The notes: generated from the letters alone by a model not told the origin. 64,000 nt of DNA from an uncultured Rikenella sp. (GCA_964635655.1 CAZWOC010000003.1:13751-77750); one strand, 5' to 3'. Numbered from the stretch's first letter, positions 1,645 to 20,782 are shown. Numbers and translations are program-made.

Positions 1645-1661
1645 TCTATAATTAACTACAG

Positions 1662-2846: not shown

Positions 2847-2857
2847 CATAAACAGGC

Positions 2858-4420: not shown

Positions 4421-4534
4421 TCTTCTTCCCAGGTAGTTATACTGCTATTATTGAGAAATATTCATGGGAATTTATATTAAGACTCAGGATTTCTCATGTC
4501 CTTAACAGAATAATCCGGGAGCCGGGTTTTGAAC

Positions 4535-7498
4535 TCAGAACTTCATACCATTATTGAAGTCCCTTTCTTTCAGACAACGGCTGAAATAGTCTGCTATGAA
4601 CCTGTTGGAAAGCAACTCCGATAACTTGGCAAGCCGGGCCTCCTGAAACGAATACTGCGTTTCATTGATTATTGGTTCATAAAGATTCTGGGCAAGCATT
4701 AAATCAATCGCAAGGCAGGGGCCAATTCCAAGTTTATCCTGAAAATTTGCCTTTCTTTTCAGGGCACCGGCTGAATAATAATCTACATAATAAGTATCAC
4801 TGTATGCACGTGATAATCTTTCTATATTATCTCCCCACTTGTTGCAGAATTCAGTGTATTTTGCCGGAATTCCTGATTTTTCGAATTCGAGATATTTGTT
4901 GATAATGGACCGATCTTCCCGGGAAAATTCCGCCCCTGTTTTTTCCAGGTATTCAAGTACCATTGGGAAGTCAATCATTGTTTCGTGCCGTTCTCTTCTG
5001 AAGTTCCGCATGATATCATCGGCGTAAGTTCCGAAAAACCTGTTGATCTCTTCGGAATTGTCTGTCCAGAATTGCTGCCAGGGAGTAAAAATTTCAGTGA
5101 CAGCTGTTCCTGTAACAGCGTTCGCAAACAGTTGATCTTCATCTGAAATGGGGTATCCTGCTATTTTAAGTTTTCGTACCAGATCAATTAAGGAATGATT
5201 TCCGGCAACAGCTATGAAATCATCTCCGGGCCGGGTTATGGCAATATTCTTGAAACTGTGTAAAAAAGCATCGTAATTTTTACTGTAAAACCCTACAGGA
5301 TTATTTAAAAGATCTTCAGTCAGAAAATCAAAATAACCCGGCGTAAGCGGCTCCACATCTAAAGGTATTTCCATTACCGGTGTACTGAGATTGTTTTGCT
5401 CCCTGTAGGCACTTCTGTAATACCAGTCATAGTCGAGGATGTGTGATGCGTAAATATATTCCATATCCATCCGGGCTATCTGGTAGGCCTTTGTACAAAA
5501 CTTATGCTCTTTAGTGATTGAATCCAGTGCTTTAATATCTCTTTCAAGGTTTTGAAGACAGGTGGATTTGTATTCCTCCGGCGACTGGTGGACTATGTTT
5601 TTTCTCATTTCATTGTAATCGAAACTGTTTACGTCCTTAAGAAGATCAAGATCGTAATTAAGCCGGGCAGATTCACCGGAATATTCTGAGGTATTTGTAC
5701 AGAGATCTATTAACTGGAAGATACTCTTCCCTGGCTCAAGAAACACAGATCCGCTAAAGGGTAATATTTCCATCCTGGCAGTCTGAGGATACGGGAGCGG
5801 AACTTTCTCAGAAAAGCTGCCGTCAGCCGCGATGTCAATTACATATCCATAGCCAGTCCCGGTAACGAGGTTTTTGAAGACCAGGAAAAATGAGTTTCCT
5901 AATATTTCCGGCTTGTAGCCTTTGATAAATCCGCTATATAGTGCAGTATCTTCCCTGAATAAGGGTTGGTCAAACGGGGTAGTGTCTGCAGAACCTGTGA
6001 TTTTTAATGACGGATCCTTCCTGATGTATGATACCAATTCCTCAGGAGATTCGCCAGCCAGAAACTTGTTTCCTTTCTTTCTGGCATACATCTTAACTGT
6101 GGACTGATCATGCCTTAGCACAAACGATCCTTTTCCATTTTTAGAATCGACCTGCTCATAACTCCATACCTGATTCCTGTAAATGGCATTGTCATGGAAA
6201 AGACTTAACTCCCAGGCACCTGTTGAATTATTGAACCAGTTGCCGGAAATTTCTTCCGGTATAGATGAAGCAGCCTGCTCCGGCTTGAGTCTTATACCGG
6301 TGATTATCCATTTGGATTCCACAAAATCAATTAAATCAGCCTGCTCGTCCAATGCGGGGAAAATCAACCTATAATCCAGTTCTCCGGATTCAGGCATGTA
6401 GTGCCGCTTACCCAGGGGTATGCCCTCAGCCCCGGAGACAAGTAATTTCGTATTTGAATTTCGAGACCGTATATAGGTCCCAGTCGGAATCTCAATCCAC
6501 CATCCGGGGGTAAAGCTGACATGAAAATGGATTACTGTTGAGGTCGGCTTTAGTTCAATTTTGCTGATTCTGACATAGTTTACCGAACTTGATTCGTAAT
6601 CGGGATTATAAATGATTGTCTTAGAATTTGTCTTCGTTGCACAGGCAACCATTATTCCCGCAAAAACAGGTATGATCAGAATGTTTTTCAACGTTGCACT
6701 CCTTGGAGTTGGCATTTTGTTTATCATGTTCAACCGTTCTCTTATAGATATGTTGAAATTATGGGCCAAGGAAAGACTTTTCATTTCAGATTGAAAATCC
6801 AGCAGCCGGTATTGGTAGGATTTTTTATTCCCGGTAATTCTGATAGATGCCTGATCTGCAAGATATTCATTGTTAAGCACCACAGATTTTTTCAAAAACC
6901 AGGTTACGGGATTAAACCACTGAAATGCTATTATCAGTTCGCATAAGATAAGGTCAAAAGTGTGACCCTGCCTTAGATGTGCAAACTCATGTTCAAGAAG
7001 GTCAGAGTAGTCCCCGTTGTCAGAAACTTTTGAGGGAATTACGACATACGGAAAAAACGAAAAGGGCGGAATATCAGCACTGGTCTCAACTACAAGCGGG
7101 AACTGCCTCTTTTTTAATTTCCCCTTGCTGATTAAACGATGGGTGCTGATGACCCGTATAATCAGTCGTGTTACCAGGGCTATTGAGACAGCCCAATAAA
7201 CAATTGTCAGCAACGCGCTAATACTGATCGGGCCATTGTCAGCCGGAATTTTTGTATCAATTGCCTGTGCCTGACCGGCGAAGCTGCCCGGTTGAAGTAC
7301 CTGGCTCCCTGTGGACTCTATTTCATTTGTAATTGATATCCTGATAGCTGGCATAACAAGCGGTAGCAATAATATCAGCAACAGCAGAATCCTGTTCCTC
7401 TGATAAAAAGTATCTTTCCTGAAAAGCAGCAGAAAAACCAGATATAGGACAGTTGTGGCCAATGAAACACTTAACAGGTATTCAAACAGGTTATTCAT
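4535..7498 (-). CDS. BlaR1-like M56 family membrane metalloprotease/sensor with a ~700-aa C-terminal extracytoplasmic domain of unknown type
   Basis: N-terminal TM helices. HExxH zinc motif in HEFAHLRQGH. A further TM (ILIIPVFAGIMVACA) is followed by a long beta-rich then helix-rich region with no SxxK/penicillin-binding motifs seen. There is an 8-nt start/stop overlap with the upstream blaI-like gene. Confidence 0.8.
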   Translation of the reverse strand: MNNLFEYLLSVSLATTVLYLVFLLLFRKDTFYQRNRILLLLILLLPLVMPAIRISITNEIESTGSQVLQPGSFAGQAQAIDTKIPADNGPISISALLTIVYWAVSIALVTRLIIRVISTHRLISKGKLKKRQFPLVVETSADIPPFSFFPYVVIPSKVSDNGDYSDLLEHEFAHLRQGHTFDLILCELIIAFQWFNPVTWFLKKSVVLNNEYLADQASIRITGNKKSYQYRLLDFQSEMKSLSLAHNFNISIRERLNMINKMPTPRSATLKNILIIPVFAGIMVACATKTNSKTIIYNPDYESSSVNYVRISKIELKPTSTVIHFHVSFTPGWWIEIPTGTYIRSRNSNTKLLVSGAEGIPLGKRHYMPESGELDYRLIFPALDEQADLIDFVESKWIITGIRLKPEQAASSIPEEISGNWFNNSTGAWELSLFHDNAIYRNQVWSYEQVDSKNGKGSFVLRHDQSTVKMYARKKGNKFLAGESPEELVSYIRKDPSLKITGSADTTPFDQPLFREDTALYSGFIKGYKPEILGNSFFLVFKNLVTGTGYGYVIDIAADGSFSEKVPLPYPQTARMEILPFSGSVFLEPGKSIFQLIDLCTNTSEYSGESARLNYDLDLLKDVNSFDYNEMRKNIVHQSPEEYKSTCLQNLERDIKALDSITKEHKFCTKAYQIARMDMEYIYASHILDYDWYYRSAYREQNNLSTPVMEIPLDVEPLTPGYFDFLTEDLLNNPVGFYSKNYDAFLHSFKNIAITRPGDDFIAVAGNHSLIDLVRKLKIAGYPISDEDQLFANAVTGTAVTEIFTPWQQFWTDNSEEINRFFGTYADDIMRNFRRERHETMIDFPMVLEYLEKTGAEFSREDRSIINKYLEFEKSGIPAKYTEFCNKWGDNIERLSRAYSDTYYVDYYSAGALKRKANFQDKLGIGPCLAIDLMLAQNLYEPIINETQYSFQEARLAKLSELLSNRFIADYFSRCLKERDFNNGMKF

Positions 7499-7859
7499 TG
7501 TCTTGCTTCTTTTCGATGATTTCTATCAGAGATTTCAAATCCTCCGTACTGAGCTTCCTGTCATTCACGAAATAGGAAACAACATTACGGTACGATGAGT
7601 CGAAGTATCGTTTTACGATATTTTTCATCTGTGCGTTCCTGTAGTCTTCCTTTGTAATTATTGCAAAGTACTCATGGGTTTTTCCGTATGATTTATGATC
7701 AACAAAACCTTTCTTTTCAAGGATTCTTACAATTGATGAAACAGTTGTGTAGGGCAGATCAGGCACCGGCAACCTGGGTATGATATCATTGACCAGTACC
7801 TTTCCCGACTCCCAGATAACCGACATCACTTCTTCTTCTCTTTTTGTTAGTCCTTTCAT
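7491..7859 (-). CDS. BlaI/MecI/CopY family winged-helix transcriptional repressor
   Basis: MKGLTKREEEVMSVIW...TTVSSIVRILEKKGFV is typical of the family. The track ORF starts at 7910, but the family-typical N-terminus begins at the ATG at 7859. It overlaps the M56 gene by 8 nt. Confidence 0.85.
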   Translation of the reverse strand: MKGLTKREEEVMSVIWESGKVLVNDIIPRLPVPDLPYTTVSSIVRILEKKGFVDHKSYGKTHEYFAIITKEDYRNAQMKNIVKRYFDSSYRNVVSYFVNDRKLSTEDLKSLIEIIEKKQDNE

Positions 7860-7908
7860 GTTGAGAAATATTTGCAGCAGCAATATAAAACGTATTATTG
7901 AGTTTAAC

Positions 7909-7924
7909 AACGTAAAAGTACGTT
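7909..7924. promoter_or_regulatory. candidate operator: perfect 6-4-6 inverted repeat AACGTA-AAAG-TACGTT upstream of the blaI-like gene
   Basis: Read directly. A third AACGTA half-site lies at 7889-7894. The palindrome is 50-65 nt upstream of the ATG at 7859. BlaI/MecI/CopY repressors bind dyad operators in their own promoters. Confidence 0.35.
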
Positions 7925-8014
7925 AAATAACGCAAACATGCTTATTTATTTTCTTTCTAAATAAGGAAGATCGGAAATAACGTCAAATAAATCAGATCTG
8001 TCGGGAGATGAATT

Positions 8015-10003
8015 CTACTGTATCCTGGCACTCACAGCGTCAGTGGGCCTGCTTTCGAGGCCGTTGTCGTATTTTATGACAATGAAGTAATAATACATTT
8101 TCCCTTTTTCTGCCGTGCCATCTGCAAAACTTTCCGCCTTGCCATCAAGAGTTTTCAGCAGGCTTTCCTTTCCGTTTTCGGGTGCACGGTAAACAAGCAC
8201 CGACTGGATATCATCCGCAACCGGCAGCGTCCACTTCACGGTGATAAACTTTGTTGAGGCAATTGCCGAAACCTCTCCCGGAGGCAAAACTCCGGCAACG
8301 GGAACATATACACTGTATGGCATGCTGAAACTGCTGACATCTGTCGTGTCAGAAGCAATGCACCTGACCCTGTAAATGTACTTTTTGCCTGGTATAACCT
8401 GCTTATCAGTAAAACTGTTTGTCATAAAATTAACTGTTCCCAGCAACTGTCCGGGTCCTGCATCCTGACCTTCACCCGCAACGCTGCGGAAAACTTCGTA
8501 AGCCGTGATGGCAGGATTCAAACCAGCCGCATCACTCCATATGAGTTTCACAGCATCATTCTCCGGAAGGGCATTAAGCCTGTCGGGAACGGGCATGAGG
8601 CCTCCGCTGAAGGAGACACTCACCCGATTACTCATCGGGCTGATATTGTACGATGTGTTTACTGATGCCACTGCATAGCTGTAAACTGCAGAGCGGCTCG
8701 AAACCGGCAGCGTGTCAGCATAAGTAAGCAGACTGTCTGTGGAATGCAGCATCCGGGGCAACTGGCACAGCTCGGAGGTGTACCCGTCAGCACGGTAAAC
8801 ATAATATCCGTGCACATCGTAACCCGCCCTGCGGAACTGCAATGTCACCACATTGCTTTTTCGCGAGGCTGTAAGATCCTGCGGGGGTATTACATTTTCC
8901 CTGTTTCCACGGAGAATTGCCGGGACCCTTGCACCGGGCAGACTGCTGCCGGTACCGCTGTTTAAAACCACATAATAATAGTAGGTTATTGAAGGCTGCA
9001 GGTCTGAGCCGTCAAAATACTCCTTCTGATCAGCCGGTAGCGAGACAACTCTTTTGTAATTATCGTTGTAAGAAGTGGACCTGTAGATTTCAATTGCATT
9101 GACAAATGCAGTCTGGCTGTAATCCCATTTCAGCAGATTCCCGCCCTTTTCAGGTTGCGGAGTGACTGTGAACTCTGTTACAATGCCGATGTCAGCAGGC
9201 TTTGTGACGAAATTGACATTCACGGTTTCTGACGGTTTCCCCAGGTTGCCAAGGCCATCGTACGGAATGGCAATATAACTGTAGATCATGCCCGAGGTCA
9301 CGTCCTTGTCCCTCACAAGGGCCACCATTTTTCCTTTTTCCTGGGCAAACATGGTTTCAGCCGCAACATCACTGAACAGATTTTTCATGTATGGACTCCG
9401 CTGAAGTTTCAGACCCGCTGTATTCTGCATATCAGAAAGTTCATAGCTGATCTCGACGTATCCCATGTTGACCTTGTAACGGAGTGGCACTGCTTCGGCG
9501 GCAGAAGGGGCAGGAGGAAAGGAGACGCTTATCTCCCTGGGCTCCGTTTTGCTGCGCGCCCCGCTGAGACGGCTGATGCGGTATTTGTATGTTCCCGGCG
9601 TCTTGATTCCGTCGTCGAACCAGCCGGCACCGGCGACGTACTGCCATCTCGGATCGGCAGAATGAACGTACAGGGAATCGAGGGTGGCAGAAGGGCTTTT
9701 TATTTTTTCCCAGATGAAATCAGTCATCCCTTCGTTAATTTCTGTCACCGAGGCAACCACTGCCGGCAGCGACATCATCCGTGACCTGCATTCAGCCACA
9801 TTTTCGGGAGCCTTAATCTCCGCAACAGAAGTCCACTTGCCCCTGGCATCCTGCCGTTCGATCAGCCATGAGAAGTTCTTCGGCAGTTCTTTACCGCAGA
9901 ATATATAGTTCCCGGTGGAATATGATTTGCTTGTATAGTTTTGTGCACCGGCAATTTGCATAAGAGCAAACCACACACATGCAAGTAATATTGATTTTTT
10001 CAT
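8015..10003 (-). CDS. secreted protein built of fibronectin-type-III-like repeats; function unknown
   Basis: Signal peptide MKKSILLACVWFALMQIAGAQ. Several ~90-aa modules with the FN3 pattern, e.g. PDRLNALPENDAVKLIWSD...YEVFRS...YIYRVRCIAS and PPGEVSAIASTKFITVKWTLP...VLVYRAP...YYYFIVIKYDNGLES. It starts 11 nt after the giant gene's stop. Confidence 0.6.
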   Translation of the reverse strand: MKKSILLACVWFALMQIAGAQNYTSKSYSTGNYIFCGKELPKNFSWLIERQDARGKWTSVAEIKAPENVAECRSRMMSLPAVVASVTEINEGMTDFIWEKIKSPSATLDSLYVHSADPRWQYVAGAGWFDDGIKTPGTYKYRISRLSGARSKTEPREISVSFPPAPSAAEAVPLRYKVNMGYVEISYELSDMQNTAGLKLQRSPYMKNLFSDVAAETMFAQEKGKMVALVRDKDVTSGMIYSYIAIPYDGLGNLGKPSETVNVNFVTKPADIGIVTEFTVTPQPEKGGNLLKWDYSQTAFVNAIEIYRSTSYNDNYKRVVSLPADQKEYFDGSDLQPSITYYYYVVLNSGTGSSLPGARVPAILRGNRENVIPPQDLTASRKSNVVTLQFRRAGYDVHGYYVYRADGYTSELCQLPRMLHSTDSLLTYADTLPVSSRSAVYSYAVASVNTSYNISPMSNRVSVSFSGGLMPVPDRLNALPENDAVKLIWSDAAGLNPAITAYEVFRSVAGEGQDAGPGQLLGTVNFMTNSFTDKQVIPGKKYIYRVRCIASDTTDVSSFSMPYSVYVPVAGVLPPGEVSAIASTKFITVKWTLPVADDIQSVLVYRAPENGKESLLKTLDGKAESFADGTAEKGKMYYYFIVIKYDNGLESRPTDAVSARIQ

Positions 10004-10014
10004 CGGGTTTAGTT

Positions 10015-13000
10015 TTATTCTTTGCAGCTGCTTAATTTGGAGTCACCGCTCTTCAGCAGGAAGTTGAACCCGCTGGAACCGAATTTTGCCGAAGCATTAA
10101 CGTCTATGCTCTTCGAGACCGTTGTTAACCCCAGGCTCTGGGTGATATCAGCTCCGAAGCCAAGGTTAATTGATGCGTCAATGTAGGAGGGATCTCCAAG
10201 TTGGAACTCGATTCTGCCGTCACCGTCAGCATGCCCGCTGATGCTTGTCCCGGTGATGGCTGCCAGTCCTGCCCCGGCGTGAAGGTAGACATATCCTCCC
10301 AGACCCACCTTCCAGCTTCCGCCGGTAACATTGACATAAGTGTTGCCTCCAATCAATCCAAGGGCATCCACATATCCCTTTGCCAGGACAAAATCAAAAT
10401 CCTCCCTCGCCTTGAACAGTTCCCTGTTGAAGGCAAAGTAAAATCCGGAGAGTCGTTCCGTGTCCTTTTTATAGCACCAGTTAACCACCCTGTCGTCAAT
10501 ATAGCTATTGGTGAGATGCCACATTTCATCGGTAAGCTTGTGCGATCCGAGCATAAGCCCGGTATTATAGTTCCCGGCAAGGATTCCTATGGGAAGGAAC
10601 GCATTGCATGCGCCGATTATATAAAATCCTTCCGCTCCGAAGCAGGATGAGATAGCTCCCTTATGTATCACAACCGACCCCAGTGTCAGTTCGTAATTAA
10701 AGCTCAGAGTCCCGATGAGTTCCTTCGTCTTGAAGTCGAATGTCTGTGACATCGAACCGAACGGGGTATCTATGCTGCTTAAAGAAAGTTTTTCCGAGCT
10801 GGCGGAGATATCACCCAGAACCTCGAAGGTGGTTTTTGTCGGGGCAATGTCGTCGGTTTTTGACTTGTCATTATTTGTGAGGTCACCCGTGAATTTGCAT
10901 GTAGTCCAGTCGCTACCGGCAACAGACATGCCTCCGTTTTCAATTTTCAGGCTGTATCCTTTTGATGCAACAACTGGCGAGGTGATTGATTCATCCTCCT
11001 CGCTGGTCAGCTGGGTAATCCAGTCTTTATCCATCTTCACTTCGAACCGCGGTGTTCCGGTGACCCTTGCAAAGAAGACGGAAGGGATCGGGTTAAACGT
11101 TTTTGCGGGTTTTTCAATCACCTTTCCTGTTATCCTGATCTCATTCTTGTCGATAGCTATCGGTTTCTTGCTGGCGTAAAAATGTACGAATCCCTTTGTT
11201 TCAAAATCCGTGTCAACGTTTTCAAGATCAGGAGGTGCGGCCGGGCTGGTCCAGATTGCACTTAATAAAATGTCACTCACCCGGGGAGCCTCTACATTGA
11301 GTGTTCCGCTGAGCTTCATGTAGTTGGGTCCGTTATATACTGCCTGCGGCAGGAAACTTGCCAGGGTGTTGCCTTTCAGCCGTGCTTTCACCCCTGACTG
11401 CTTCAGCTGAACGATCATCTCGTTGTTGCTCAGGATCTGCAGATAGTCGAAGTCAACCGGGTAGGGCGTTGTCATGTCAGGATTTGTCAGACCTGCCAGA
11501 CCGGGCAGCGATGCCACCTTGTCAGTGCCGTTGCTTATCAGGTTGAAGTTCCAGTGCGGTTTCATATCTGACCCCACCTTCTGCTCGAAATTCAGATGAG
11601 GCTTGATTGCGGGAGTAATCTTCAGAGGAAATATTCCCCCGGCGAGAGCAATTTTATCAAACTGGAACTCGTCAATCTGAAACATGTCATTCCTGAGAAC
11701 GAAACGGGTCAGAGGGATATCGACAATTTTCGTACGGATCAGTGCATTCTGGCTTACAATGCCCCCTTCCGAAGGATCCAGTTTCCAGTCTTTGACTTCA
11801 AGGGTCCACTGTTCCAGCGCAAGCTTTATCGGCACAGTCCCGGATACAGGGCTTACCTTGTTCTGATCAAGCACTATGCCCGGGATATTCACAGTAAACT
11901 TTTCAGGTTGTGCGTTTGCAATATTGCAGGTCAGATCGGCATCAAGGTGTATTTTCCCGTTTTCGTCGATATAACTGTTCAGAGGATTCGCGGTAGCAGG
12001 GAAGTTCAGCAATCTGAAAGCAATTGGCTTCGCATTCCTGTCAGACAGGTAATAAACGGGTTTTGGCTTACTCAGATAATTGATGTATCCTGTCTGGATC
12101 GCTTCCTGGTAGACTGACATGTTGTTGTAAACAGGTTTCGAGGCCTCCGTTTCCGATACTGCGCTTGTAACCAGGTCCACAACGTTGTTTATCTTGTTAT
12201 TCTCATTCCTGGCAAGGTAGAATTCACTCTTGTCAAAATCGAGGTAGCTGCTGGGATAATTGAACGAATTGTCAATGATCTTCATTTTACCGTTTATCTT
12301 CCCGAAATCGTTCACCCTTTTGACGGAGAGAGGCGTTGTGTTGAAGAAATCCTCTGTTTCAGCTGACTGCAAGGCAACGTTGTAGCTGTTCATATACGAC
12401 AGCTTCAGTGATGTGACGCCCCTGATTACAACTTCATCATCATTTGCTATGCCCACTGTCGAACCATCCTTGTCTGTCAGGTTGAAAACGACATCTTCTA
12501 CCCTGAGCACCTTATTCACCTCGTTGAGGGCGAAATCACTGACCGCCTCGGTCCAGTGAATCAGTCCCGTCACCTTTACCTGTTTTGAATTAACGGGGGT
12601 CAGGCTCTCCACTGTCAGCGGGAATCCGTAAATCTTGTTTATTACGGCCTGGCTGTAAGATTTCAGGTTCAGATCAACAACCGCCTTCCCGGCTTTGATT
12701 GAGGCTGACTGTTTGTCGCCCGCAACGGTGAAGGTAGTGTCGAGTGTTGCCCGGATAAAAATTTCCTGGTTATCGACAGGCACTCCCCGCAGGGTGTATT
12801 TCCCCTGGCTGTCGGTATAGGCTGCCACAAGGTTGGCGTCCTGTGTGATCTTGCCTTCCGGTTTGTTATACCCGGGGCCATAGTATTTGGAGGAAGGCTG
12901 GGTTGCAGTTCCTGGCTGTTGGCTGTTTTTCGGTTCAGAGACCACCTGTGCAGATGCCCCGGACTGCAGGCTGTAATTCTTTGTGGCAACTGCCTGGGCT

Positions 13001-16000
13001 GATGTTCCGTACTGCTGGCTGAAACTGAGGGCTGAAACCAGCTGGGTGGAGGTGTTTGAAACATCAATGTAAACCCTGGCATTTTTTACCGGTGTGCCGT
13101 CCAGTTTCACAATGCCGCTTATTTCGTTCCCCTTTTCAAGCTGCACGCTTTTAATTACATAGCCTTCCGTTTCATCACTTTCCACATTGACTGTTTTCGG
13201 GATATACCCGCTTCCGGCAGCTCCCCTGACAATAAATGTGTAATTGTTCACAGAAACGTTTTCGAAGTTGAACCTTGCTATTCCGTTTGCATCGGTGGTT
13301 TTTACCGAGTCGCCAAGCTGGATTGTTGCTCCGGCAATGCGCTTCGCCGGCCCTGCAATGTCAATCTTCTCGGATACTGAGAACTGTATCCGGTGACGGC
13401 GGCGATAAACCATTATATCCTTCAGCTCCAGCTGATCCTGGGCGGCATCAGTGTCCGTAAACACGTATGATGAATTGAAATAGGCAACATCCTTTGGAAT
13501 TATTTTCAATGTATCCTTTGCGACATATGGAGCCGGGACTTCGAAATACCCTGCATTGTCTGTCTCGAAATACTTTCCGTCTCTGACCTGTATGTAAGCC
13601 GGTACAGTTTCAAGGGTGTTACCGGCCAGCTTCTCATCCGGGCATCTGACGGTTCCTGTGACTGTATGCAAGGGTGAGAGACCGATATCCTTTACGAACT
13701 GAACACCTTTCCTGACAAAGGAATAGCCTGCGCCGCTGAAGGAGTCCCTGTATCCGTTCGCCCCGGCGAAGAAATATACGGTTGTCGGATTCTGCCCGTC
13801 AGCCACATACTCGTCCAGTGGCGTACCCCCGGTTGCAAGTATTTCGGCCTTGCCGTAATCGTCCACAGGAACGGTTCGGAAATCATTGCTTCCGGATATT
13901 GACTGTTCTTTGGACACCATAACCCTGGCACCATTGTCTTTGGTCACCAGCGAGCCTGCCTTCACATCACGTACGGTGATCAGCGCCCTGCTCACCAGGG
14001 GTTGCAGTATTACTTCAGCTTCCACGACCGGGATTTCCGGGTTTGCCCAGTCAGTCTCAGTGACCTGCGGAACCTGCGGTGATTCACGGATTGTTGCCTG
14101 GTAGGTCAGAGTATTCTCCGCCACATAACTTGATGACTCGATGAAGTAATACGGGAACTGGGACTGAAGAAGGGCCGGGAGTGGAGAATAGTTGTCCTTG
14201 CTGGCTGAGTTGTAGACCGTAGGCCTTGCCGGCCATAATTGTTCAAATTTTTGACTGAATAAGCCACCGGCGTTCACCTTATCGGTTGTAGAGGCTGCAT
14301 CCTGTGAGTTATACTGAGGATTCAGCAGCTCAGCATATGTGTACTTGCCGTCTCCTTCGCCGTGAGGCAGATTCTTCTTTTTGTCTGCCAGGTTCCGGAA
14401 CAGTGTAACCTGCATCCCTGAGAGGGAGATCTTCTCCTTATCCTCATTAAGTGTCTTCGGATAGACTTTCATCTCGAACTCCCTTACGTAATGGGTGATA
14501 TCAATGGGTGTTTCCATTTCCTCCAGTGGCTGCACCGTGATGATTTCCGCAGAAGGGTAATAGTAGGAGGCGGCATCACCGTCAATTATAATGCGAAACA
14601 CCCGTTTGAAGCCGCTGTATGATTTTGTTTCATACTCGTCATCGACGACATTGCCGGCATGAGGGGTGAGGCTGGCTGTATACTGTTCATCAAATGACGG
14701 ATAGGGGCCGTGGGCCGGTGCCTCCGGCTCCGGGAAAAACATTTCGGCACCGCCTGCAATGCTTTTGTTGTCTTTAAGTTTGCCTCCGTTCAGCTTGCTC
14801 CCTGCCAGTTTACTTCCGGTCAGCTCGAACGAGTTGGACACCTCGTCGAAAGTGATGCTGAAACCGGGGTTGATTGCCGACTGGCTGCCAAGGGCCGCAT
14901 TAGCCGTCCCGAACCCGTTGCCGCCTGGTTTCAATCCTGCGACTGCAGGACCTGCCGGGAATGCAAAGCTGCTGCCGTCATTCCATGGATTTGTCACAAT
15001 CTGATCCAGCCCCTTGAGACCCGCGCCGAGCTCCTTTTTAAACTGGTCTCCGATGCCACCGCCGGGAGTGGTTTCGGGCACTGAATGACTGGTTTTGGAA
15101 TGGGCTACAGTACCCGGGCCAAGGTTTCCCTTAAAATCCAGGTTCACGGTTTCAATCACAAAATTTCCGTTTGCATCAGTCATCCCGGCTGCCATAGTAG
15201 CGTACTGATCAGACAGTGATACATAATCCTCCATGCTTCCGTCCGAATCGTCCGGGTAGAATGTGTAAGATTCGCTTCCGCCCGGTAAACCGGGAATGTT
15301 ATTGTACTGGCTTTTCGTGGCGCCTATCGAGACATTATTTTCATCGACATAGTTTACAATCACCCGGAAGCGGGTATTTGCGAGGGGACGCTTCAGCCTG
15401 GCCGGGTCAGATTTCCAGGTGTAGAGCAATCTGCCGCGTATCACCGATGTGGGCGGCCTGCATGAAACCACCTCATAATCTGCAGTGACGGTCCGGTAAA
15501 AAGCATCCGGGTCCTCTGGTTCCGGCAACTCCAGACCGAACTCCATAGGCTCTGCTATGTAATCATTCTCGTCAAGGAAGTTTGTTGTGCTTGCTCCTGC
15601 TGTAATAATATCTGCAATTACCGATTCAAGGGTAACCTTTTCCGATGAGGTGATGGGGGTTGCCGGGTTATACTTGTATGCAGATGCCTTGACCGCACCG
15701 GTCCCGGTTGCACCTGCCTGTGCGGTGCCGGTCCCTGCCGCACCTGATTTGACCGCAGCGGTTCCTGCCACACCTGATTTGATCATACCGGCGCCTGCTG
15801 TGCCTGGTTTGACCGCACCGGTCCCCGCTGTGCTGGTCCCTGCTGCACCTGCATCAATACCGGTGACCTTCACACCTGACTTTACCGCTCCTGTCCCTGC
15901 CGCGCCTGTTATAACCAGGCCCTGGTTTTTCATTGCGACCCATTTATCGATGTCCTTAACGGCAATAATCTTGTATTTGTCAGAGTTGGATGCAAACAGA

Positions 16001-18177
16001 CGGTCAAAAACTGCATATGACTTGTCTCCCTGGATTACAGTTATTCCCTTTGCCACCACTGTGATTTTCCCGGTAGTGAGCGGAGTCTTCAAATCGATAT
16101 TTCCTTCCCAGTCAGGGATATGCGGTTTTTTATTTTCCCTGTACATTATTACCGGAATGCCTGGAGCAACCGCAACTACCTCCGACTGGTAATATCCTGC
16201 CTGCTGTGTGTCATTCAGGGTATTTTCGACCCCCTGGGTCTTCATCTTTTCCATCGCCTTCTGTGCCTCGGTCTTTTCCTCATGCTGAACTGTGACCTTT
16301 GTACCGTCCTGCGACAGAAAATAGGAGGTAAACCGTTTCCGGACATTCAGATTCAACCGGTAGGCATATGTTCCGGCTACCATTTCGCCGAAGTCGGCAA
16401 AAGAAGACCGGCCTTCCGCCCATTTGAAATATTCTCCTGAACCGGGGGCGTCACCCTGTGATGAAGAACCCGGAGAAACCGAATGATCTGTATGAGTGAC
16501 AATCTTCAGATCAAAATCATCATCAACATAGTACTGATTACCAATCAGTAACCTGCAGAAGACAGTATCATTTTCCATGAATTCAACCGCGACTGGCAAC
16601 TTTGTGTCTATTTTTCCGAGGTCATCGGTCGTAACAGCGACCGAGGCCACTTTTTTCAGGGACCTGTTCCCGACGGTTATTACCGGTGAAGGATCGGCGG
16701 TTCCGGAGCCCACGGGTACCAATGCTTCGGCAATGACATCTGTTCCGGCCACCGGGTAAAGTTCGGGGAATCCCTTGAAGCTGTATTTCAAAACAGCCTG
16801 AACTGAGACTTCCTGCATTTGTGGGCCTTTGAGTTCCCTGTAAACAAACTCAGGACTGGAATAAGGGGCTATCAGGTTGTTTGTTTTACCAAATTGCTTA
16901 AGTGTGGCTTTGTAAACATCACCGTCAGTGAAGCCTGCTTCCCGGGCTTCCTCTTTGCTTATCTGGAGCTTGTTCGGGAGGTTTCCCTGGGCATCTTTGT
17001 CAAATGTCCGTGAGAAGCTGAATGTTGCAGGAGTTGCGGTGTTATTGCTTTTAAGGCGTTCAATGTCAAGCACATATCTCTCTATTCCAAGGCTTTGAAT
17101 CGATTCAGAATCGGTCATTGCCATGGAATCGGCAGTGACAGGTTTGACCCATGCCCAGTTTATCAGCAAATCCTGGTTCTCGTTTACATCCAGCGTATCC
17201 GGCTTGTTCTGAGCCAGTTTTCGGGGAATGATAAAAGTAAATTCTGATTCTGAGCTCCCTGAAGTTGGTTCTGTCTGTGAGCAGGTAAATAACGACGGTT
17301 CGCTATGGCCCTTGTTTTTAAAGGCTGTCATGTTTGACGGGTCAACAGCCGTTACCATGAAAGCATATGATTTCCCTGGTGTAAGAGGGGGATTAGCAAA
17401 TGAATAGAGATATGTATTTGTGAAGAGAGTTGTCTCGAAGAATACGGGATAGCCTGCCGAAAGCAGTTTATCCTGGTAATTGCCGGCCGGGGTTGGCAGT
17501 TCGATGATCTTCAGTTTGTACTGGGTATTTACCGGAGCGCTTGGGGGGCGGGTCCAGAGAAAGGTGACATTCTTTGCTTCAGATTCGCTAAGCTGAGCCT
17601 GATTCACCGGAGAAATGATTATCGGGGCTTCAACCCATGAAACAGTGAACTGGTTACTGCATGCGGCGACTTCTGAAAGGGGTCTGGATGAATCAAAATC
17701 ATAGATTGAGAAACAGATTGTGTAGGTGTTTTCAGGCAGTCCCTGCTGCATGACCTGTTCCCGGGTAATGCCGATGTACTCCAGGCTTTGCCCGGCAAAT
17801 ATCTGGAGAATGTCACTGTATGTCAGGGTATACGGGAGGAACATAATTGCTCCCGTAGGTCCCTGTGTTCCCTTGATCAGTATGGGTGCCGCCGGTTTGT
17901 AACCCTCCCTGGTGCGGATTATGACTGATTCGTCAGCGCTGTATATTGCACCATGAAGGAATACAGGGTATTCCAGCCTGTCAAAACCGGTGGCCACCGG
18001 GGTGATCACGCTGTAAATTTTCCCTGGTACGGCTATGTAATCCGATAGCCGGTTCGAATAGGGGGGCATGACGGTTACAGTCTGCACAAACTGCGCACTG
18101 ACTGTAGCAGAAAGCAATAAACAAAGCGAGACGAATACTTTTCGCCCTGGATGCAGACTCTTAGAAAGTGAAGGCAT
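10015..18177 (-). CDS. giant secreted/surface protein (2,720 aa) with several carboxypeptidase-regulatory-like beta-sandwich modules, low-complexity Gly/Ala/Thr repeats and a Gly-rich C-terminal region; function unknown
   Basis: Uninterrupted 8.16-kb ORF. Signal peptide ...VFVSLCLLLSATVSAQ. Recurrent CarboxypepD_reg-type signatures (MTDANGNFVIETV; VTGTVRC...ETDNAGYFEVP; IAGATIQLGDSVKTTDANGIARFNFENV; ISGIVKLDGTPVKNARVYID...YTDSQGKYTLRGVPV). I recognised no T9SS C-terminal sorting domain. Confidence 0.6.
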   Translation of the reverse strand: MPSLSKSLHPGRKVFVSLCLLLSATVSAQFVQTVTVMPPYSNRLSDYIAVPGKIYSVITPVATGFDRLEYPVFLHGAIYSADESVIIRTREGYKPAAPILIKGTQGPTGAIMFLPYTLTYSDILQIFAGQSLEYIGITREQVMQQGLPENTYTICFSIYDFDSSRPLSEVAACSNQFTVSWVEAPIIISPVNQAQLSESEAKNVTFLWTRPPSAPVNTQYKLKIIELPTPAGNYQDKLLSAGYPVFFETTLFTNTYLYSFANPPLTPGKSYAFMVTAVDPSNMTAFKNKGHSEPSLFTCSQTEPTSGSSESEFTFIIPRKLAQNKPDTLDVNENQDLLINWAWVKPVTADSMAMTDSESIQSLGIERYVLDIERLKSNNTATPATFSFSRTFDKDAQGNLPNKLQISKEEAREAGFTDGDVYKATLKQFGKTNNLIAPYSSPEFVYRELKGPQMQEVSVQAVLKYSFKGFPELYPVAGTDVIAEALVPVGSGTADPSPVITVGNRSLKKVASVAVTTDDLGKIDTKLPVAVEFMENDTVFCRLLIGNQYYVDDDFDLKIVTHTDHSVSPGSSSQGDAPGSGEYFKWAEGRSSFADFGEMVAGTYAYRLNLNVRKRFTSYFLSQDGTKVTVQHEEKTEAQKAMEKMKTQGVENTLNDTQQAGYYQSEVVAVAPGIPVIMYRENKKPHIPDWEGNIDLKTPLTTGKITVVAKGITVIQGDKSYAVFDRLFASNSDKYKIIAVKDIDKWVAMKNQGLVITGAAGTGAVKSGVKVTGIDAGAAGTSTAGTGAVKPGTAGAGMIKSGVAGTAAVKSGAAGTGTAQAGATGTGAVKASAYKYNPATPITSSEKVTLESVIADIITAGASTTNFLDENDYIAEPMEFGLELPEPEDPDAFYRTVTADYEVVSCRPPTSVIRGRLLYTWKSDPARLKRPLANTRFRVIVNYVDENNVSIGATKSQYNNIPGLPGGSESYTFYPDDSDGSMEDYVSLSDQYATMAAGMTDANGNFVIETVNLDFKGNLGPGTVAHSKTSHSVPETTPGGGIGDQFKKELGAGLKGLDQIVTNPWNDGSSFAFPAGPAVAGLKPGGNGFGTANAALGSQSAINPGFSITFDEVSNSFELTGSKLAGSKLNGGKLKDNKSIAGGAEMFFPEPEAPAHGPYPSFDEQYTASLTPHAGNVVDDEYETKSYSGFKRVFRIIIDGDAASYYYPSAEIITVQPLEEMETPIDITHYVREFEMKVYPKTLNEDKEKISLSGMQVTLFRNLADKKKNLPHGEGDGKYTYAELLNPQYNSQDAASTTDKVNAGGLFSQKFEQLWPARPTVYNSASKDNYSPLPALLQSQFPYYFIESSSYVAENTLTYQATIRESPQVPQVTETDWANPEIPVVEAEVILQPLVSRALITVRDVKAGSLVTKDNGARVMVSKEQSISGSNDFRTVPVDDYGKAEILATGGTPLDEYVADGQNPTTVYFFAGANGYRDSFSGAGYSFVRKGVQFVKDIGLSPLHTVTGTVRCPDEKLAGNTLETVPAYIQVRDGKYFETDNAGYFEVPAPYVAKDTLKIIPKDVAYFNSSYVFTDTDAAQDQLELKDIMVYRRRHRIQFSVSEKIDIAGPAKRIAGATIQLGDSVKTTDANGIARFNFENVSVNNYTFIVRGAAGSGYIPKTVNVESDETEGYVIKSVQLEKGNEISGIVKLDGTPVKNARVYIDVSNTSTQLVSALSFSQQYGTSAQAVATKNYSLQSGASAQVVSEPKNSQQPGTATQPSSKYYGPGYNKPEGKITQDANLVAAYTDSQGKYTLRGVPVDNQEIFIRATLDTTFTVAGDKQSASIKAGKAVVDLNLKSYSQAVINKIYGFPLTVESLTPVNSKQVKVTGLIHWTEAVSDFALNEVNKVLRVEDVVFNLTDKDGSTVGIANDDEVVIRGVTSLKLSYMNSYNVALQSAETEDFFNTTPLSVKRVNDFGKINGKMKIIDNSFNYPSSYLDFDKSEFYLARNENNKINNVVDLVTSAVSETEASKPVYNNMSVYQEAIQTGYINYLSKPKPVYYLSDRNAKPIAFRLLNFPATANPLNSYIDENGKIHLDADLTCNIANAQPEKFTVNIPGIVLDQNKVSPVSGTVPIKLALEQWTLEVKDWKLDPSEGGIVSQNALIRTKIVDIPLTRFVLRNDMFQIDEFQFDKIALAGGIFPLKITPAIKPHLNFEQKVGSDMKPHWNFNLISNGTDKVASLPGLAGLTNPDMTTPYPVDFDYLQILSNNEMIVQLKQSGVKARLKGNTLASFLPQAVYNGPNYMKLSGTLNVEAPRVSDILLSAIWTSPAAPPDLENVDTDFETKGFVHFYASKKPIAIDKNEIRITGKVIEKPAKTFNPIPSVFFARVTGTPRFEVKMDKDWITQLTSEEDESITSPVVASKGYSLKIENGGMSVAGSDWTTCKFTGDLTNNDKSKTDDIAPTKTTFEVLGDISASSEKLSLSSIDTPFGSMSQTFDFKTKELIGTLSFNYELTLGSVVIHKGAISSCFGAEGFYIIGACNAFLPIGILAGNYNTGLMLGSHKLTDEMWHLTNSYIDDRVVNWCYKKDTERLSGFYFAFNRELFKAREDFDFVLAKGYVDALGLIGGNTYVNVTGGSWKVGLGGYVYLHAGAGLAAITGTSISGHADGDGRIEFQLGDPSYIDASINLGFGADITQSLGLTTVSKSIDVNASAKFGSSGFNFLLKSGDSKLSSCKE
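15690..15915 (-). repeat. intragenic imperfect tandem repeat (~30-33 nt units) encoding G/A/T/V/K-rich peptide repeats inside the giant gene
   Basis: It encodes ...GAAGTGAVKSGVKVTGIDAGAAGTSTAGTGAVKPGTAGAGMIKSGVAGTAAVKSGAAGTGTAQAGATGTGAVKA... Repeated DNA words cacctgatttgaccgc / ggtccctgc are visible. Boundaries are approximate. Confidence 0.6.
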
Positions 18178-19867
18178 ATCCTAAATCTCCTCTTGTTTCG
18201 TTATACGACGGTATGACGGAAGTGTCAGCAAATGAATTTTTTATCAGATTCAGATTGAGTGTGACCGAATGCTTTGGAAGGAAACGGTAATTTGAATTCA
18301 ACGAGGTGTTGTATATGATTCCTTCCTCTCCGTTCAGCCTGTTAATCATACATGCATTGTTCCAGTTCAGGGTGAGCTTGTCCTTCAGCAGTGACGACGA
18401 AATCCCCAGGGTACCGCCTGCAAGCTGATTTGAATAATTCTGGTTTACCATATTTGTATAATTGGCTCCAAGGCTCACATTTATCTTTTGTTTGACCAGA
18501 CCCAGCGAATACATCAGCATGGCAACCTTGGTATCCGTGTCTGTCATCTCCGAGGTCTGCTCGTTCTTGTCATTCAGCATCATCCAGTTCAGGTTGAGCA
18601 TCACCATGTGAGAGAAGCTCTGGGAAACCTTCATGAAGCGGGGAGAAAGGAGGAGGCTGTGATTGACCTGGTAGACCATCAGGGAGTTATCAGCAATGTT
18701 TTTAACCGCTTTCTGGTTGGTTGAAAAATTATTGTATGACAGATCTACCGCCCAGTTTTCATCAATTGTATAATTGCCTGACAATGCACCTATCATCCTT
18801 CTCGAAGTGCTGTTTTTTGAACCGTCGAGGTTGTCACGCTGCATCCCTATAGAACCCCGTGCCCTGATTTTGTTTTCAAGGAAGGAGAACGTCTGGTTGA
18901 AGGTGACCTGCTCCAGGTCGTTGTTGAAGAAGTAGCTTCCCATAGACTGGTATCCGGGGTCGATACGCCGGTATTCGATCGCGGAGCTCACGTTCCGTGA
19001 AAAATTGTACGAGAGGCTGGTTTTGATGGCCGAAAATCGCTGGCTTGTCTCATTTATGCTGATCAGGTTGCTTGCATAAAGCATCAGCCTGTCATTGATT
19101 GTATCCGAGGTGCCGAGTGTCGAGTTAGGTGTAAGGAAGCTCACCGAGCCGTCGACGCTGAATATCAGCTTAGAAGTGATGCTTATCCGGGAAGTCAGTC
19201 CCAGTGCAAGGTTTTGGGCAGGAACAGGATACTCAGGATTATCCGAAGGAACGAAGTTCTTCTTATTGTCACCGATCCGGAGCATTGAAACATCGACGAA
19301 TGTTTTCTCCGTGCCATAGCCAATTTTGCCGGCCCATCCCAGCCGTGTAAGTTTCGGAATAGAGTCAGCCATCAGCAGGTCATACTGTGAGGTTTCGTTG
19401 AACTTTCCGTAAACAGCTGCGAGCCTGAATTTTCCCGGTCTGGCTTCCAGCCCGGCGCCAAGAAATGTATGGCCGTTCAGGGTGAATTCAGAGAACGACA
19501 CATTCCTGTAACCCAGGTGGAGTGTCAGCCACTTCCAGGTAGGACTTATCCCGAACTGGTTGAAGGGCTGACTGAAGCCGGCTTTCTCATTGCTGTACCA
19601 TGTGAAGGAGAATGGCATGCTGATGCCGTAGACGGTGAGGGTGGCGTTTGCGTTCACCCCGAAGGCAAAGGGCGTCTGCCTGTCGGGAATGCCTGATGCA
19701 TTGTAGAATGCAGTGTTCAGACCGAGACTGCCGTTAACGGCGACAGGCTTCACATTCTTCAGGTCGGTTAAAGACTGCGCTTGCAGATTCACCGCAGTCA
19801 TCAGGAACAGAATTGTGCATAAAGGTTTGTTTATGCTTTTGATCAACACTTTACCTGGTTGTTTCAT
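18161..19867 (-). CDS. outer-membrane beta-barrel protein (568 aa), family not recognised
   Basis: Signal peptide ...LFLMTAVNLQAQS. Alternating-hydrophobic, N/S/T/Y-rich strands throughout. The C-terminus ...RGDLGYAFTF has the terminal aromatic residue typical of BAM substrates. Its last 17 nt overlap the giant gene's start. Confidence 0.65.
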   Translation of the reverse strand: MKQPGKVLIKSINKPLCTILFLMTAVNLQAQSLTDLKNVKPVAVNGSLGLNTAFYNASGIPDRQTPFAFGVNANATLTVYGISMPFSFTWYSNEKAGFSQPFNQFGISPTWKWLTLHLGYRNVSFSEFTLNGHTFLGAGLEARPGKFRLAAVYGKFNETSQYDLLMADSIPKLTRLGWAGKIGYGTEKTFVDVSMLRIGDNKKNFVPSDNPEYPVPAQNLALGLTSRISITSKLIFSVDGSVSFLTPNSTLGTSDTINDRLMLYASNLISINETSQRFSAIKTSLSYNFSRNVSSAIEYRRIDPGYQSMGSYFFNNDLEQVTFNQTFSFLENKIRARGSIGMQRDNLDGSKNSTSRRMIGALSGNYTIDENWAVDLSYNNFSTNQKAVKNIADNSLMVYQVNHSLLLSPRFMKVSQSFSHMVMLNLNWMMLNDKNEQTSEMTDTDTKVAMLMYSLGLVKQKINVSLGANYTNMVNQNYSNQLAGGTLGISSSLLKDKLTLNWNNACMINRLNGEEGIIYNTSLNSNYRFLPKHSVTLNLNLIKNSFADTSVIPSYNETRGDLGYAFTF

Positions 19868-20085
19868 TGGTTATGGAGGGGATATTTAGAGCAATTGGAT
19901 CAGCGGCAGAATGTACTCCGGGCACCTAAAGCGGGGAGGCTTTTTTATCGGATTTGATTACCGTTTTCATAAACAGGAATCTGAAAGGAGTATATATGGG
20001 TAATAATACCTATAAACTCACAACCAGGTTATTATATTGCAGGTACTTTAAACAGTTTAAAGGATATGTCATTCCCCAATTATCT

Positions 20086-20093
20086 TAATTTTG
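20086..20093 (+). promoter_or_regulatory. Bacteroidota -7 promoter box TAATTTTG (consensus TAnnTTTG)
   Basis: Exact consensus match, 32 nt upstream of the ATG at 20125. Confidence 0.45.
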
Positions 20094-20124
20094 CTCTTAG
20101 TGTAAAAAAAGGCCGACAAAAACT

Positions 20125-20634
20125 ATGAAAAGGAACTATATGAATCCGTACCTGGCAGGAGTGCTGCTGGGACTGGTATTACTGCTGGCAATGGTGGTCT
20201 CAGGCCGCGGACTGGGAGCCAGTGGCGGAATCAAATACTGCGTGGTCTCAGTTGTCGGGGCAGTAAGTCCGGAACATGTGAACCAGTCGGAATACTACTC
20301 CGGCTATTTTGAAAATGGCAAGAAGCCTCTCTTCAACTGGCTTACAGTTGAGATCTTCGGCGTGCTGCTGGGCGGATTTATTTCCGGAGCCATCTCCGGC
20401 AGGCTGAAGCTCCGGGTCGAGAAATCGCCCCGGATAACAAATACACGAAGACTTGTATTTGCCTTTCTGGGCGGCATGCTCTTTGTCTACGGAGGCCAGC
20501 TGGCGAGGGGGTGCACTTCCGGAGCCGCCCTCTCGGGAATGGCCGTTCTCTCCCTGGCCGGTTTCGTGACAATGGTTGCGATATTCGGTTCGGCTTTCGC
20601 ATTTGCGTGGTTCTTCAGGAAAAACTGGATATGA
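20125..20634 (+). CDS. YeeE/YedE family sulfur-compound (thiosulfate) transporter, half-size subunit 1
   Basis: Polytopic membrane protein with the Sulf_transp-type motif GGQLARGCTSGAALSG. Confidence 0.8.
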   Translation: MKRNYMNPYLAGVLLGLVLLLAMVVSGRGLGASGGIKYCVVSVVGAVSPEHVNQSEYYSGYFENGKKPLFNWLTVEIFGVLLGGFISGAISGRLKLRVEKSPRITNTRRLVFAFLGGMLFVYGGQLARGCTSGAALSGMAVLSLAGFVTMVAIFGSAFAFAWFFRKNWI

Positions 20635-20636
20635 AA

Positions 20637-20724
20637 GTCTGAAGGTCTGAAGGTCTGAAGGTCTGAAGGTCTGAGAGTCTGAAGGTCTGAGAGTCTGAAG
20701 GTCTGAAGGTCTTGCGGTCAAGGG
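20637..20724. repeat. 11-unit direct tandem array of an 8-bp motif (GTCTGAAG x7, GTCTGAGA x2, then GTCTTGCG, GTCAAGGG)
   Basis: Counted base by base. It begins 2 nt after the stop at 20632-20634 and ends 58 nt before the ATG at 20783. Confidence 0.95.
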
Positions 20725-20782
20725 TAATTCAGATACTGAGATATGGAAATGAGTTGAAAACAAACATTACTAAAAAAAGAAT

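Follow-up and report, generated by a model that had tools for sequence, protein, structure and literature searches.

A TANFOR-class giant protein and its conserved barrel partner in an uncultured Rikenella sp.: a candidate outer membrane export or anchoring cassette

How might a secreted protein of 2,720 residues cross the outer membrane (OM) of a member of the Bacteroidota? The question is raised by a DNA stretch of 64,000 nucleotides from an uncultured Rikenella sp. (GCA_964635655.1, CAZWOC010000003.1:13751-77750; hereafter the window), in which the gene of such a giant protein stands between that of a predicted OM β-barrel and that of a secreted protein with an FN3 domain. The giant begins with a TANFOR domain, a module found in proteins of about 6% of Bacteroidota genomes, including that of the periodontal pathogen Tannerella forsythia. 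The sole export proposal for TANFOR proteins is secretion by the type IX system (T9SS), and it rests on neighbourhood enrichment; the unannotated barrel offers a testable answer to how these giants cross the OM. To our knowledge, T9SS and lipoprotein export are the only routes known for surface proteins of Bacteroidota, and if the barrel is a conduit it would represent a new OM export route in this phylum. In this study we propose, with a probability of roughly 0.55, that the barrel is a dedicated OM export or anchoring module for the giant, to which the giant would dock through a TANFOR-FN3 tandem.

A three-gene cassette shared across the Bacteroidota

Profile hidden Markov model (HMM) searches, which the initial annotation of the window had proposed, placed the giant in an already-named class: residues 28-179 match the NCBIfam TANFOR domain TIGR02542 (T_forsyth_147) with 119.6 bits against a cut-off of 67 (E 9.7e-35), so that the earlier statement that none of the three proteins could be assigned to a family was wrong for the giant. 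Jana, Salomon & Bosis (2020, Life Sci Alliance; PMC7073777) have described TANFOR proteins as a polymorphic toxin class of Bacteroidetes, comprising 339 proteins of which 87% have a Sec signal, with a nuclease, lysozyme, VIP2 or the new BaCT DNase at the C-terminus of some members. They stated that the export route is unknown and hypothesised the T9SS, on the grounds of a nearby enrichment of SprB, C-terminal sorting domain (CTD), FN3 and PKD domains and of the presence of a T9SS in more than 95% of the genomes (PMC7073777). By its defining domain, size, host and Sec signal the giant is a member of this class.

The TANFOR class and the N-terminal domain of the giant are therefore known already, and the locus is not unique. 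The barrel as an invariant TANFOR partner, a concrete alternative to the T9SS hypothesis, appears to be unreported so far. The words 'barrel' and 'porin' occur 0 times in the text of the TANFOR study, and in the sampled part of its Supplement 1 the barrel and FN3 neighbours (about 550-570 residues upstream and about 650 residues downstream) are tabulated without comment (PMC7073777). Among the other publications mentioning TANFOR none studies its export, and no later work on the barrel was found.

The three genes (Table 1) are co-directional on the minus strand, and the open reading frame (ORF) list and translations returned exactly the coordinates, the 17-nucleotide overlap and the 11-nucleotide spacer of the initial annotation. 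The ATG of the giant lies inside the barrel codons TAT-GCC, which encode Tyr-Ala of the terminal GYAFTF, while the stop codon of the giant occupies 10015-10017 and the ATG of the FN3 gene is at 10003. The overlap implies that translation of the barrel and the giant would be coupled, and a putative cassette promoter could lie nowhere but in the gap upstream of the barrel gene; a promoter and terminator scan of the cassette gave results at shuffle level, with a sigma-70 type model whose coverage does not extend to Bacteroidota promoters. A PADLOC run returned zero matches. Sec signal peptides, reported earlier for all three products, look typical by eye (basic n-region, hydrophobic h-region, A-x-A/Q-type site), and orthologues of all three proteins are SignalP-positive in rows of the published table (PMC7073777 Supplement 1).

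A genome scan with the barrel alignment yielded 80 loci. They belong to Bacteroidales, T. forsythia ATCC 43037 among them, and to Cytophagales, Chitinophagales, Sphingobacteriales and Saprospirales; the nearest loci are in Bacteroidales metagenome-assembled genomes, at 83-95% identity. The N-terminal 300 residues of the giant are matched directly downstream of the barrel, on the same strand, in 76 of the 80 loci, and the remaining four have less than 650 nucleotides of downstream sequence (76/76 where there is room). Similarly, a homologue of the FN3 gene follows 53 of 61 complete giants, and all 8 exceptions lack the remaining sequence (53/53 where there is room). On the ORF maps a barrel of 545-620 residues is succeeded by a giant of 1,300-3,100 residues and an FN3-protein homologue of 500-780 residues. 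In the reverse test, with the TANFOR module as query on metagenomes, the barrel was found directly upstream in 28 of 29 loci; the exception, of the multi-repeat type, has only 781 nucleotides of upstream sequence. Lower-scoring barrel representatives and distant TANFOR fragments showed the same cassette each time and no other type of neighbourhood. The overlap is exactly 17 nucleotides in 28 of 75 junctions, in lineages whose barrels share 35-40% identity.

From the published table we sampled a single run of 15 successive rows, which hold Dyadobacter, Larkinella, Pedobacter, Spirosoma, Siphonobacter, Flavobacterium and Runella. All 15 list a domain-less, SignalP-positive upstream protein of 548-564 residues, and 14 list a signal-peptide protein of about 640-725 residues among the two downstream genes, annotated with FN3 in about half of the cases; this protein is the second gene down in two Runella rows, and a protein of about 500 residues is listed in two Pedobacter rows (PMC7073777 Supplement 1). 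In the rows seen, the upstream protein of T. forsythia has 548 residues and lies at a distance of -17, a value that also occurs in Dyadobacter, Larkinella, Spirosoma and Runella (PMC7073777 Supplement 1). The arrangement is far beyond chance because it recurs in every related locus examined, and the gene-neighbourhood comparison suggested at the outset shows barrel, giant and FN3 genes to be syntenic in this order well beyond the source genome. Judged from sequence, the cassette is a phylum-wide Bacteroidota unit, and our locus is a standard member among hundreds of orthologous cassettes.

Further observations link the barrel with the TANFOR module. In a 949-residue protein (P0251; L081:4827-7676) a TANFOR-like and an FN3-like module are naturally fused to a complete barrel (hhalign probability 96.6%, E 5.6e-10), and a 1,458+-residue ORF with no TIGR02542 match lies farther downstream in the same locus. 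In Fermentimonas/Petrimonas the gene of a separate 331-residue TANFOR-only protein stands between those of the barrel and of the TANFOR-bearing giant (Table 1), and T. forsythia has four tandem TANFOR repeats. Barrel divergence correlates with that of the TANFOR module at r 0.82 (0.52 among distant pairs), compared with 0.67 (0.13) for the C-terminus of the giant and 0.66 (0.21) for the FN3 protein; the barrel is the most conserved component of the cassette, with a mean pairwise identity of 0.43 against 0.37, 0.23 and 0.25 for the other three. Each of the two cassettes of Chryseolinea serpens (L057 and L063) has its own barrel, and L016 contains a second cassette in tandem upstream (giant 489-7178, FN3 gene 7275-9356). 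Reciprocal synteny, the 17-nucleotide overlap, one fusion and one barrel per paralogous cassette thus argue for the barrel as the dedicated partner of the giant, as had been suggested in the initial annotation; that the giant is exported or anchored through it is what we infer.

The barrel model and the modules of the giant

The C-terminal β-signal of the barrel, GYAFTF, belongs to a pattern, [GSA]-Y-x-[FY]-x-F, kept across 75 homologues, and the aromatic terminus noted earlier thus reads as a conserved BAM-type end. No Pfam or NCBIfam family matches the barrel above cut-off: Pfam gave a sub-threshold match to the generic OMP_b-brl family, and NCBIfam gave AcfA_fam_omp alone (16.8 bits against a cut-off of 100), with no PorP/SprF match (TIGR03519). 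When 1.84 billion representatives of 50% identity clusters were searched with a barrel profile, 2,379 proteins passed E<=1e-3 and 1,279 passed E<=1e-30, nearly all of them with 545-590 residues; every one of the 705 closer homologues is annotated as 'hypothetical', and a sequence search of the PDB with the barrel profile found no relative.

Structure prediction, also recommended in the initial annotation, was performed with AlphaFold2 (AF2) on an alignment of 30 sequences (pLDDT 77.5, pTM 0.65). DSSP assigns 27 strand elements to the model, two of which resemble one broken strand, giving about 26 strands that occupy almost the entire mature chain, and the model contains no plug, POTRA or other periplasmic domain. 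Against the PDB, Foldseek returned generic large barrels only, headed by the ushers PapC/FimD when ranked by E-value (E ~1e-8, TM-score 0.28-0.45) and by MtrB when ranked by TM-score (0.52). The structures that the barrel model resembles best are barrels that conduct or hold proteins.

Surface proteins that bind glycans can contain FN3 and CarboxypepD_reg-like modules, and the generic barrels in the Foldseek list include TonB-dependent transporters and porins, as might be expected of a SusCD-like uptake complex in which the barrel formed a solute channel, fed by the giant and the FN3 protein as binding proteins at the surface. However, the barrel has neither plug domain, TonB box nor HMM match to TonB-dependent transporters, the conserved cassette contains no SusD-like, glycoside hydrolase or regulator genes, and a start-stop coupled partner of 2,000-3,100 residues with a conserved N-terminal module is not known from uptake loci. 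We regard such a complex as highly improbable.

In the giant, the signal peptide (MPSLSKSLHPGRKVFVSLCLLLSATVSAQ, followed by FVQ; read by eye) precedes the TANFOR domain. The AF2 model of residues 28-300 (10 sequences, pLDDT 86.8) consists of two tandem β-sandwiches whose nearest Foldseek matches are generic tandem FN3 pairs of the cytokine-receptor type. This TANFOR plus FN3-like tandem is the part of the giant conserved in every cassette: 54-55 of 55 distant giants cover residues 51-300, and about 36 of 55 cover residues 1-50. By comparison, residues 300-1500 are covered by close relatives only, residues ~1550-2550 mostly in 18-34 of the 55 (10/55 at residues ~1701-1750), and the final 150 residues by few.

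The Gly-rich tracts described earlier are present (residues ~757-832, ~1036-1140 and ~2600-2680), the first being encoded by a 30-nucleotide tandem repeat of 4.6 copies detected by TRF (15689-15825). The 'several carboxypeptidase-regulatory-like sandwiches' of the initial annotation came down to a single sub-threshold match to PF13715 (CarbopepD_reg_2; residues 1612-1672, 20.3 bits against 32.2) and to TDxxGxF-type motifs seen by eye only. Sequence searches of the PDB with the giant, and with a profile of its C-terminal 980 residues, found no relative, and a word-indexed protein search, from whose index complete giants appear to be missing, gave no more than 6 short fragments for its C-terminus and 9 for its N-terminus.

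Two observations concern the C-terminal part of the giant. The most hydrophobic segment after the signal peptide (GFYIIGACNAFLPIGILAG, residues 2517-2535, encoded by 10573-10629) lies about 200 residues from the C-terminus and recurs at a similar position in several clades, where Gly-rich stretches and conserved cysteines come next; it may be a membrane-active or a buried core element. A match to slam_lipo at residues ~2463-2511 (10645-10791; E 0.022, 15 bits against a cut-off of 80) was judged to be probably due to chance; this family, the Slam-dependent surface lipoproteins, is the cargo of another barrel-dependent surface-export route.

For the third protein of the cassette, the Pfam fn3 family scores 32.5 bits against a cut-off of 25 over the whole protein, with no single stretch passing alone. 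Eight Cytophagales/Chitinophagales cassettes (L037, L045, L054, L057, L063, L065, L066 and L074) contain an extra ORF of 174-194 residues between the giant and FN3 genes, with a signal peptide and mostly with the motif MSFSNA(Y/F)..LNSG. Because of the signal peptide, the reading of these ORFs (~175-195 residues) as immunity genes was rejected, and they are predicted to encode a fourth secreted component. In the rows seen of the published table, T. forsythia ATCC 43037 (L015) has a 143-residue restriction-endonuclease-like ORF between the giant gene and the gene of a 665-residue FN3-type protein, and other strains have a GIY-YIG ORF there.

Export route and function of the giant

In the mechanism that we favour, all three products would cross the inner membrane by the Sec pathway, and BAM would insert the ~26-strand barrel, which would become the dedicated OM conduit and/or anchor of the giant. 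The giant would recognise the barrel, or dock to it, through the TANFOR plus FN3-like tandem, its remainder, a string of β-sandwiches with a conserved C-terminal core, would be threaded out and then displayed at the surface or released, and the FN3 protein would act as a periplasmic or surface accessory. An empty barrel of about 26 strands should not be tolerated in the OM, and therefore something must occupy its lumen, as in ushers, MtrAB and LptDE. In a published outer membrane vesicle (OMV) study, the T. forsythia orthologue of the giant (WP_052449025.1, 3,078 residues) was detected in the OMV fraction.

Several points weigh against this mechanism. The same T. forsythia giant has the lowest abundance listed in the OMV study, and the accession of the T. 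forsythia barrel was not found in the searched literature, the main text of that study included. Any operon that is inherited as a unit should show synteny and correlated divergence, and the fusion protein comes from a single Logan metagenomic contig with insertion sequence and Uma2 genes nearby and could be a product of rearrangement or assembly. The barrel model is of moderate confidence, its strand number and closure deriving from DSSP only, and the modelled TANFOR module is a generic tandem β-sandwich with no marks of a plug or a secretion signal. Finally, in the rows seen, toxin-bearing TANFOR genes of Tenacibaculum, Aquimarina, Flavobacterium and Chryseobacterium have other immediate upstream neighbours, namely genes of a PKD lipoprotein, an SprB/CTD protein or a ~1,560-residue protein, and the toxin-bearing genes with no adjacent barrel are from Flavobacteriia and Chitinophagia (PMC7073777). 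Not every TANFOR gene, then, has the barrel gene right next to it.

The giant could instead be a T9SS cargo that uses a non-canonical signal, with the barrel acting afterwards as a cognate anchor or adaptor in a PorP/SprF-like role. The pairing of a cargo gene with a cognate OM-protein gene is a known T9SS theme, as in SprB/SprF. SprA is encoded in the window, as stated in the initial annotation (44911-52317, plus strand; SprA_N, E 1e-208), and therefore the organism has a T9SS; the frequency of the system in TANFOR genomes and the enrichment of SprB/CTD genes nearby, cited above, also speak for this route. The sprA gene sits among the housekeeping genes of RuvA, PdxA, IF-2 and NusA. On the other side, neither the giant nor the FN3 protein contains a type A (TIGR04183) or type B (TIGR04131) CTD at E<=0.1, or at E<=10 when the C-termini were searched, in agreement with the earlier failure to recognise one in the giant; the 61 related giants contain none at E<=0.01. 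Furthermore, the barrel matches neither PorP/SprF nor any T9SS family, its gene is located upstream and is translationally coupled rather than downstream, and most Bacteroidota have a T9SS, so that co-occurrence discriminates little. The cassette-bearing Sphingobacterium sp. 30C10-4-7 (L064) is listed in the part of the data seen with SprA = 0 and one CTD protein (PMC7073777); for a draft genome this is weak evidence, a lead toward T9SS independence and not proof. Overall, we consider T9SS export of the giant unlikely.

Returning to the barrel as the dedicated module of the giant, it is possible, and we suggest it tentatively, that the barrel family constitutes an unrecognised T9SS-independent OM secretion or anchoring pathway, an analogue of two-partner secretion or of ushers made from unrelated parts.

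What the giant does is a separate matter, and export through the barrel is compatible with its being a contact-dependent, CdiA-like toxin filament whose C-terminal Gly-rich hydrophobic region would be an unrecognised toxin or translocation domain. AHH, WHH, EndoU, VIP2, TNT, BaCT and PoNe toxin domains occur in some members of the TANFOR class (PMC7073777), and in our giant the hydrophobic segment described above is followed by a Gly-rich stretch and conserved Cys residues. In Chryseolinea the C-terminal half of the giants diverges faster than the N-terminal half; the pairwise identity profiles show this divergence to be gradual, and a swap of polymorphic C-terminal modules was rejected. No Pfam or NCBIfam toxin family matches the giant, the BaCT and PoNe profiles being outside the set searched, and the last 450 residues of the 61 barrel-linked giants match no Pfam or NCBIfam family, and hence no toxin domain of these databases, at E<=0.01. 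These C-termini form homologous groups of 41, 10 and 7, so that one family accounts for 41 of the 61 and the region is not polymorphic, and in the clade of the window the C-terminus is the best-conserved part of the giant (85-98% identity). Moreover, the next gene encodes a secreted FN3 protein instead of a small cytoplasmic immunity-like protein, and in the sampled barrel-type rows none of the 15 TANFOR proteins has a toxin domain (PMC7073777 Supplement 1). A toxin filament is thus decidedly unlikely, and the giant, which has no recognisable toxin, is a 'core', toxin-less TANFOR protein that probably acts as a surface fibril or adhesin-like effector. The 'polymorphic toxin' class is accordingly split, as the barrel-linked members examined carry no recognisable toxin.

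The features of the cassette are compiled in Table 1. Beyond the gap upstream of the barrel gene lie divergent sulphur-transport and rhodanese genes: two neighbouring ORFs at 20125-21388 (plus strand) match the C-terminal and then the N-terminal half of the YeeE/Sulf_transp family, and the rhodanese genes are next. At the other end, 104 nucleotides directly downstream of the FN3 gene and on the same strand, mutually overlapping ORFs (4535-7910, minus strand) encode a BlaI-like repressor (139 residues, PF03965) and a BlaR1/peptidase-M56-like sensor, which at 987 residues far exceeds its M56 domain (residues 10-259). Farther away, a 355-residue ORF with a weak RHS-repeat match near its C-terminus (23592-24659, minus strand; E 1.2e-5) adjoins the gene of a tricorn-like S41 protease (24877-28224).

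Table 1 Features of the cassette in the window, and TANFOR-only ORFs in related loci
Feature	Position	Strand	Basis
Barrel gene, first of cassette, 568 residues	18161-19867	-	ORF and translation
Barrel predicted signal peptide, residues 1-31	19775-19867	-	by eye
Overlap of barrel and giant genes, 17 nucleotides (barrel stop region and giant start codon)	18161-18177	-	
Gene of the TANFOR-class giant secreted protein, 2,720 residues	10015-18177	-	ORF, translation, NCBIfam
TANFOR domain, giant residues 28-179	17641-18096	-	TIGR02542; modelled β-sandwich
FN3-like second β-sandwich, giant residues ~185-298	17284-17625	-	weak Pfam fn3 at residues 190-278 and AF2
Lineage-specific middle, giant residues ~300-1500, with Gly/Ala tandem repeat	13678-17280	-	coverage by close relatives
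Conserved core, giant residues ~1550-2550, TDxxGxF β-sandwich motifs	10528-13530	-	coverage among distant giants
C-terminal Gly-rich, Cys-containing region, giant residues ~2590-2720	10018-10410	-	composition, HMM scans
Spacer, 11 nucleotides, giant stop codon to FN3 gene ATG	10004-10014	-	
Secreted FN3-domain protein gene, third of cassette, 662 residues	8015-10003	-	ORF, Pfam fn3
Intergenic gap, 257 nucleotides, 5' of barrel gene	19868-20124	.	ORF map
331-residue TANFOR-only ORF	L016:11613-12608		
331-residue TANFOR-only ORF	L017:4266-5261		
331-residue TANFOR-only ORF	L029:11658-12653		

Comparison with known systems

The giant shares with published TANFOR proteins the N-terminal TANFOR domain after a Sec signal, the FN3-like domain that succeeds it, the giant size, the Bacteroidota host and an FN3 gene nearby, and Supplement 1 itself contains rows for orthologous cassettes (T. 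forsythia, Pedobacter, Sphingobacterium, Chryseolinea and others). The TANFOR polymorphic toxins differ in having a recognisable C-terminal toxin and an immunity gene, neither of which is present in the giant or in the 61 barrel-linked giants.

The initial annotation had likened the cassette to two-partner secretion in logic and not in homology, and our comparisons agree: the cassette would resemble two-partner secretion or chaperone-usher systems in its logic while failing their family-defining features that were tested. With two-partner secretion and contact-dependent inhibition (TpsB-TpsA, CdiB-CdiA; type Vb) it has in common the adjacent, co-directional order of transporter and then giant cargo, Sec-dependence, a cargo whose N-terminal module is conserved and whose other parts vary, and C-terminal polymorphic toxins in some members of the cargo class. 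The type Vb transporter, however, is an Omp85 protein with POTRA domains and 16 strands, compared with about 26 strands and no POTRA in the barrel of the cassette, which has no match to the ShlB/POTRA_2 Pfam families at E<=0.1. The cargo is likewise different: type Vb cargo has a β-helical TPS domain (PF05860), which has no match to the giant in the Pfam scan, and a TPS-like β-helix is ruled out for the N-terminus of the giant by the tandem β-sandwich model and its Foldseek matches. The cassette also adds a third conserved gene, that of the FN3 protein.

The likeness to chaperone-usher systems (PapC/FimD, PapD/FimC) is that usher pores top the Foldseek list of the barrel, that cargo and accessory are made of Ig/FN3-like sandwiches, and that folded Ig-like modules could travel through a barrel of large size. 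The TM-scores are only 0.28-0.45, though, the barrel has neither the plug nor the N- or C-terminal domains of ushers, the cassette encodes a single giant polypeptide instead of polymerising pilins, and no cassette protein has an HMM match to the usher (PF00577) or chaperone (PF00345) families. The SprB-SprF pair of the T9SS, with its type B CTD, resembles the cassette in its Bacteroidota host, in the combination of a giant surface protein with its own OM-protein gene and in the presence of the T9SS core in the genome. It differs in that the giant of the cassette has no CTD and that the barrel is not of the PorP/SprF family, is much larger and is encoded upstream with an overlap rather than downstream.

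The last comparison is with MtrCAB and LptDE. The cassette has no sequence relationship with these systems and encodes neither cytochromes nor an LptE-like lipoprotein. The likeness lies in the barrel itself, as MtrB, with 26 strands, is its best match by TM-score (0.52), and in the need of an unplugged barrel of about 26 strands for a protein occupant, on which these complexes are built; by analogy, we conjecture that the giant or the FN3 protein might occupy the lumen of the barrel in the cassette.

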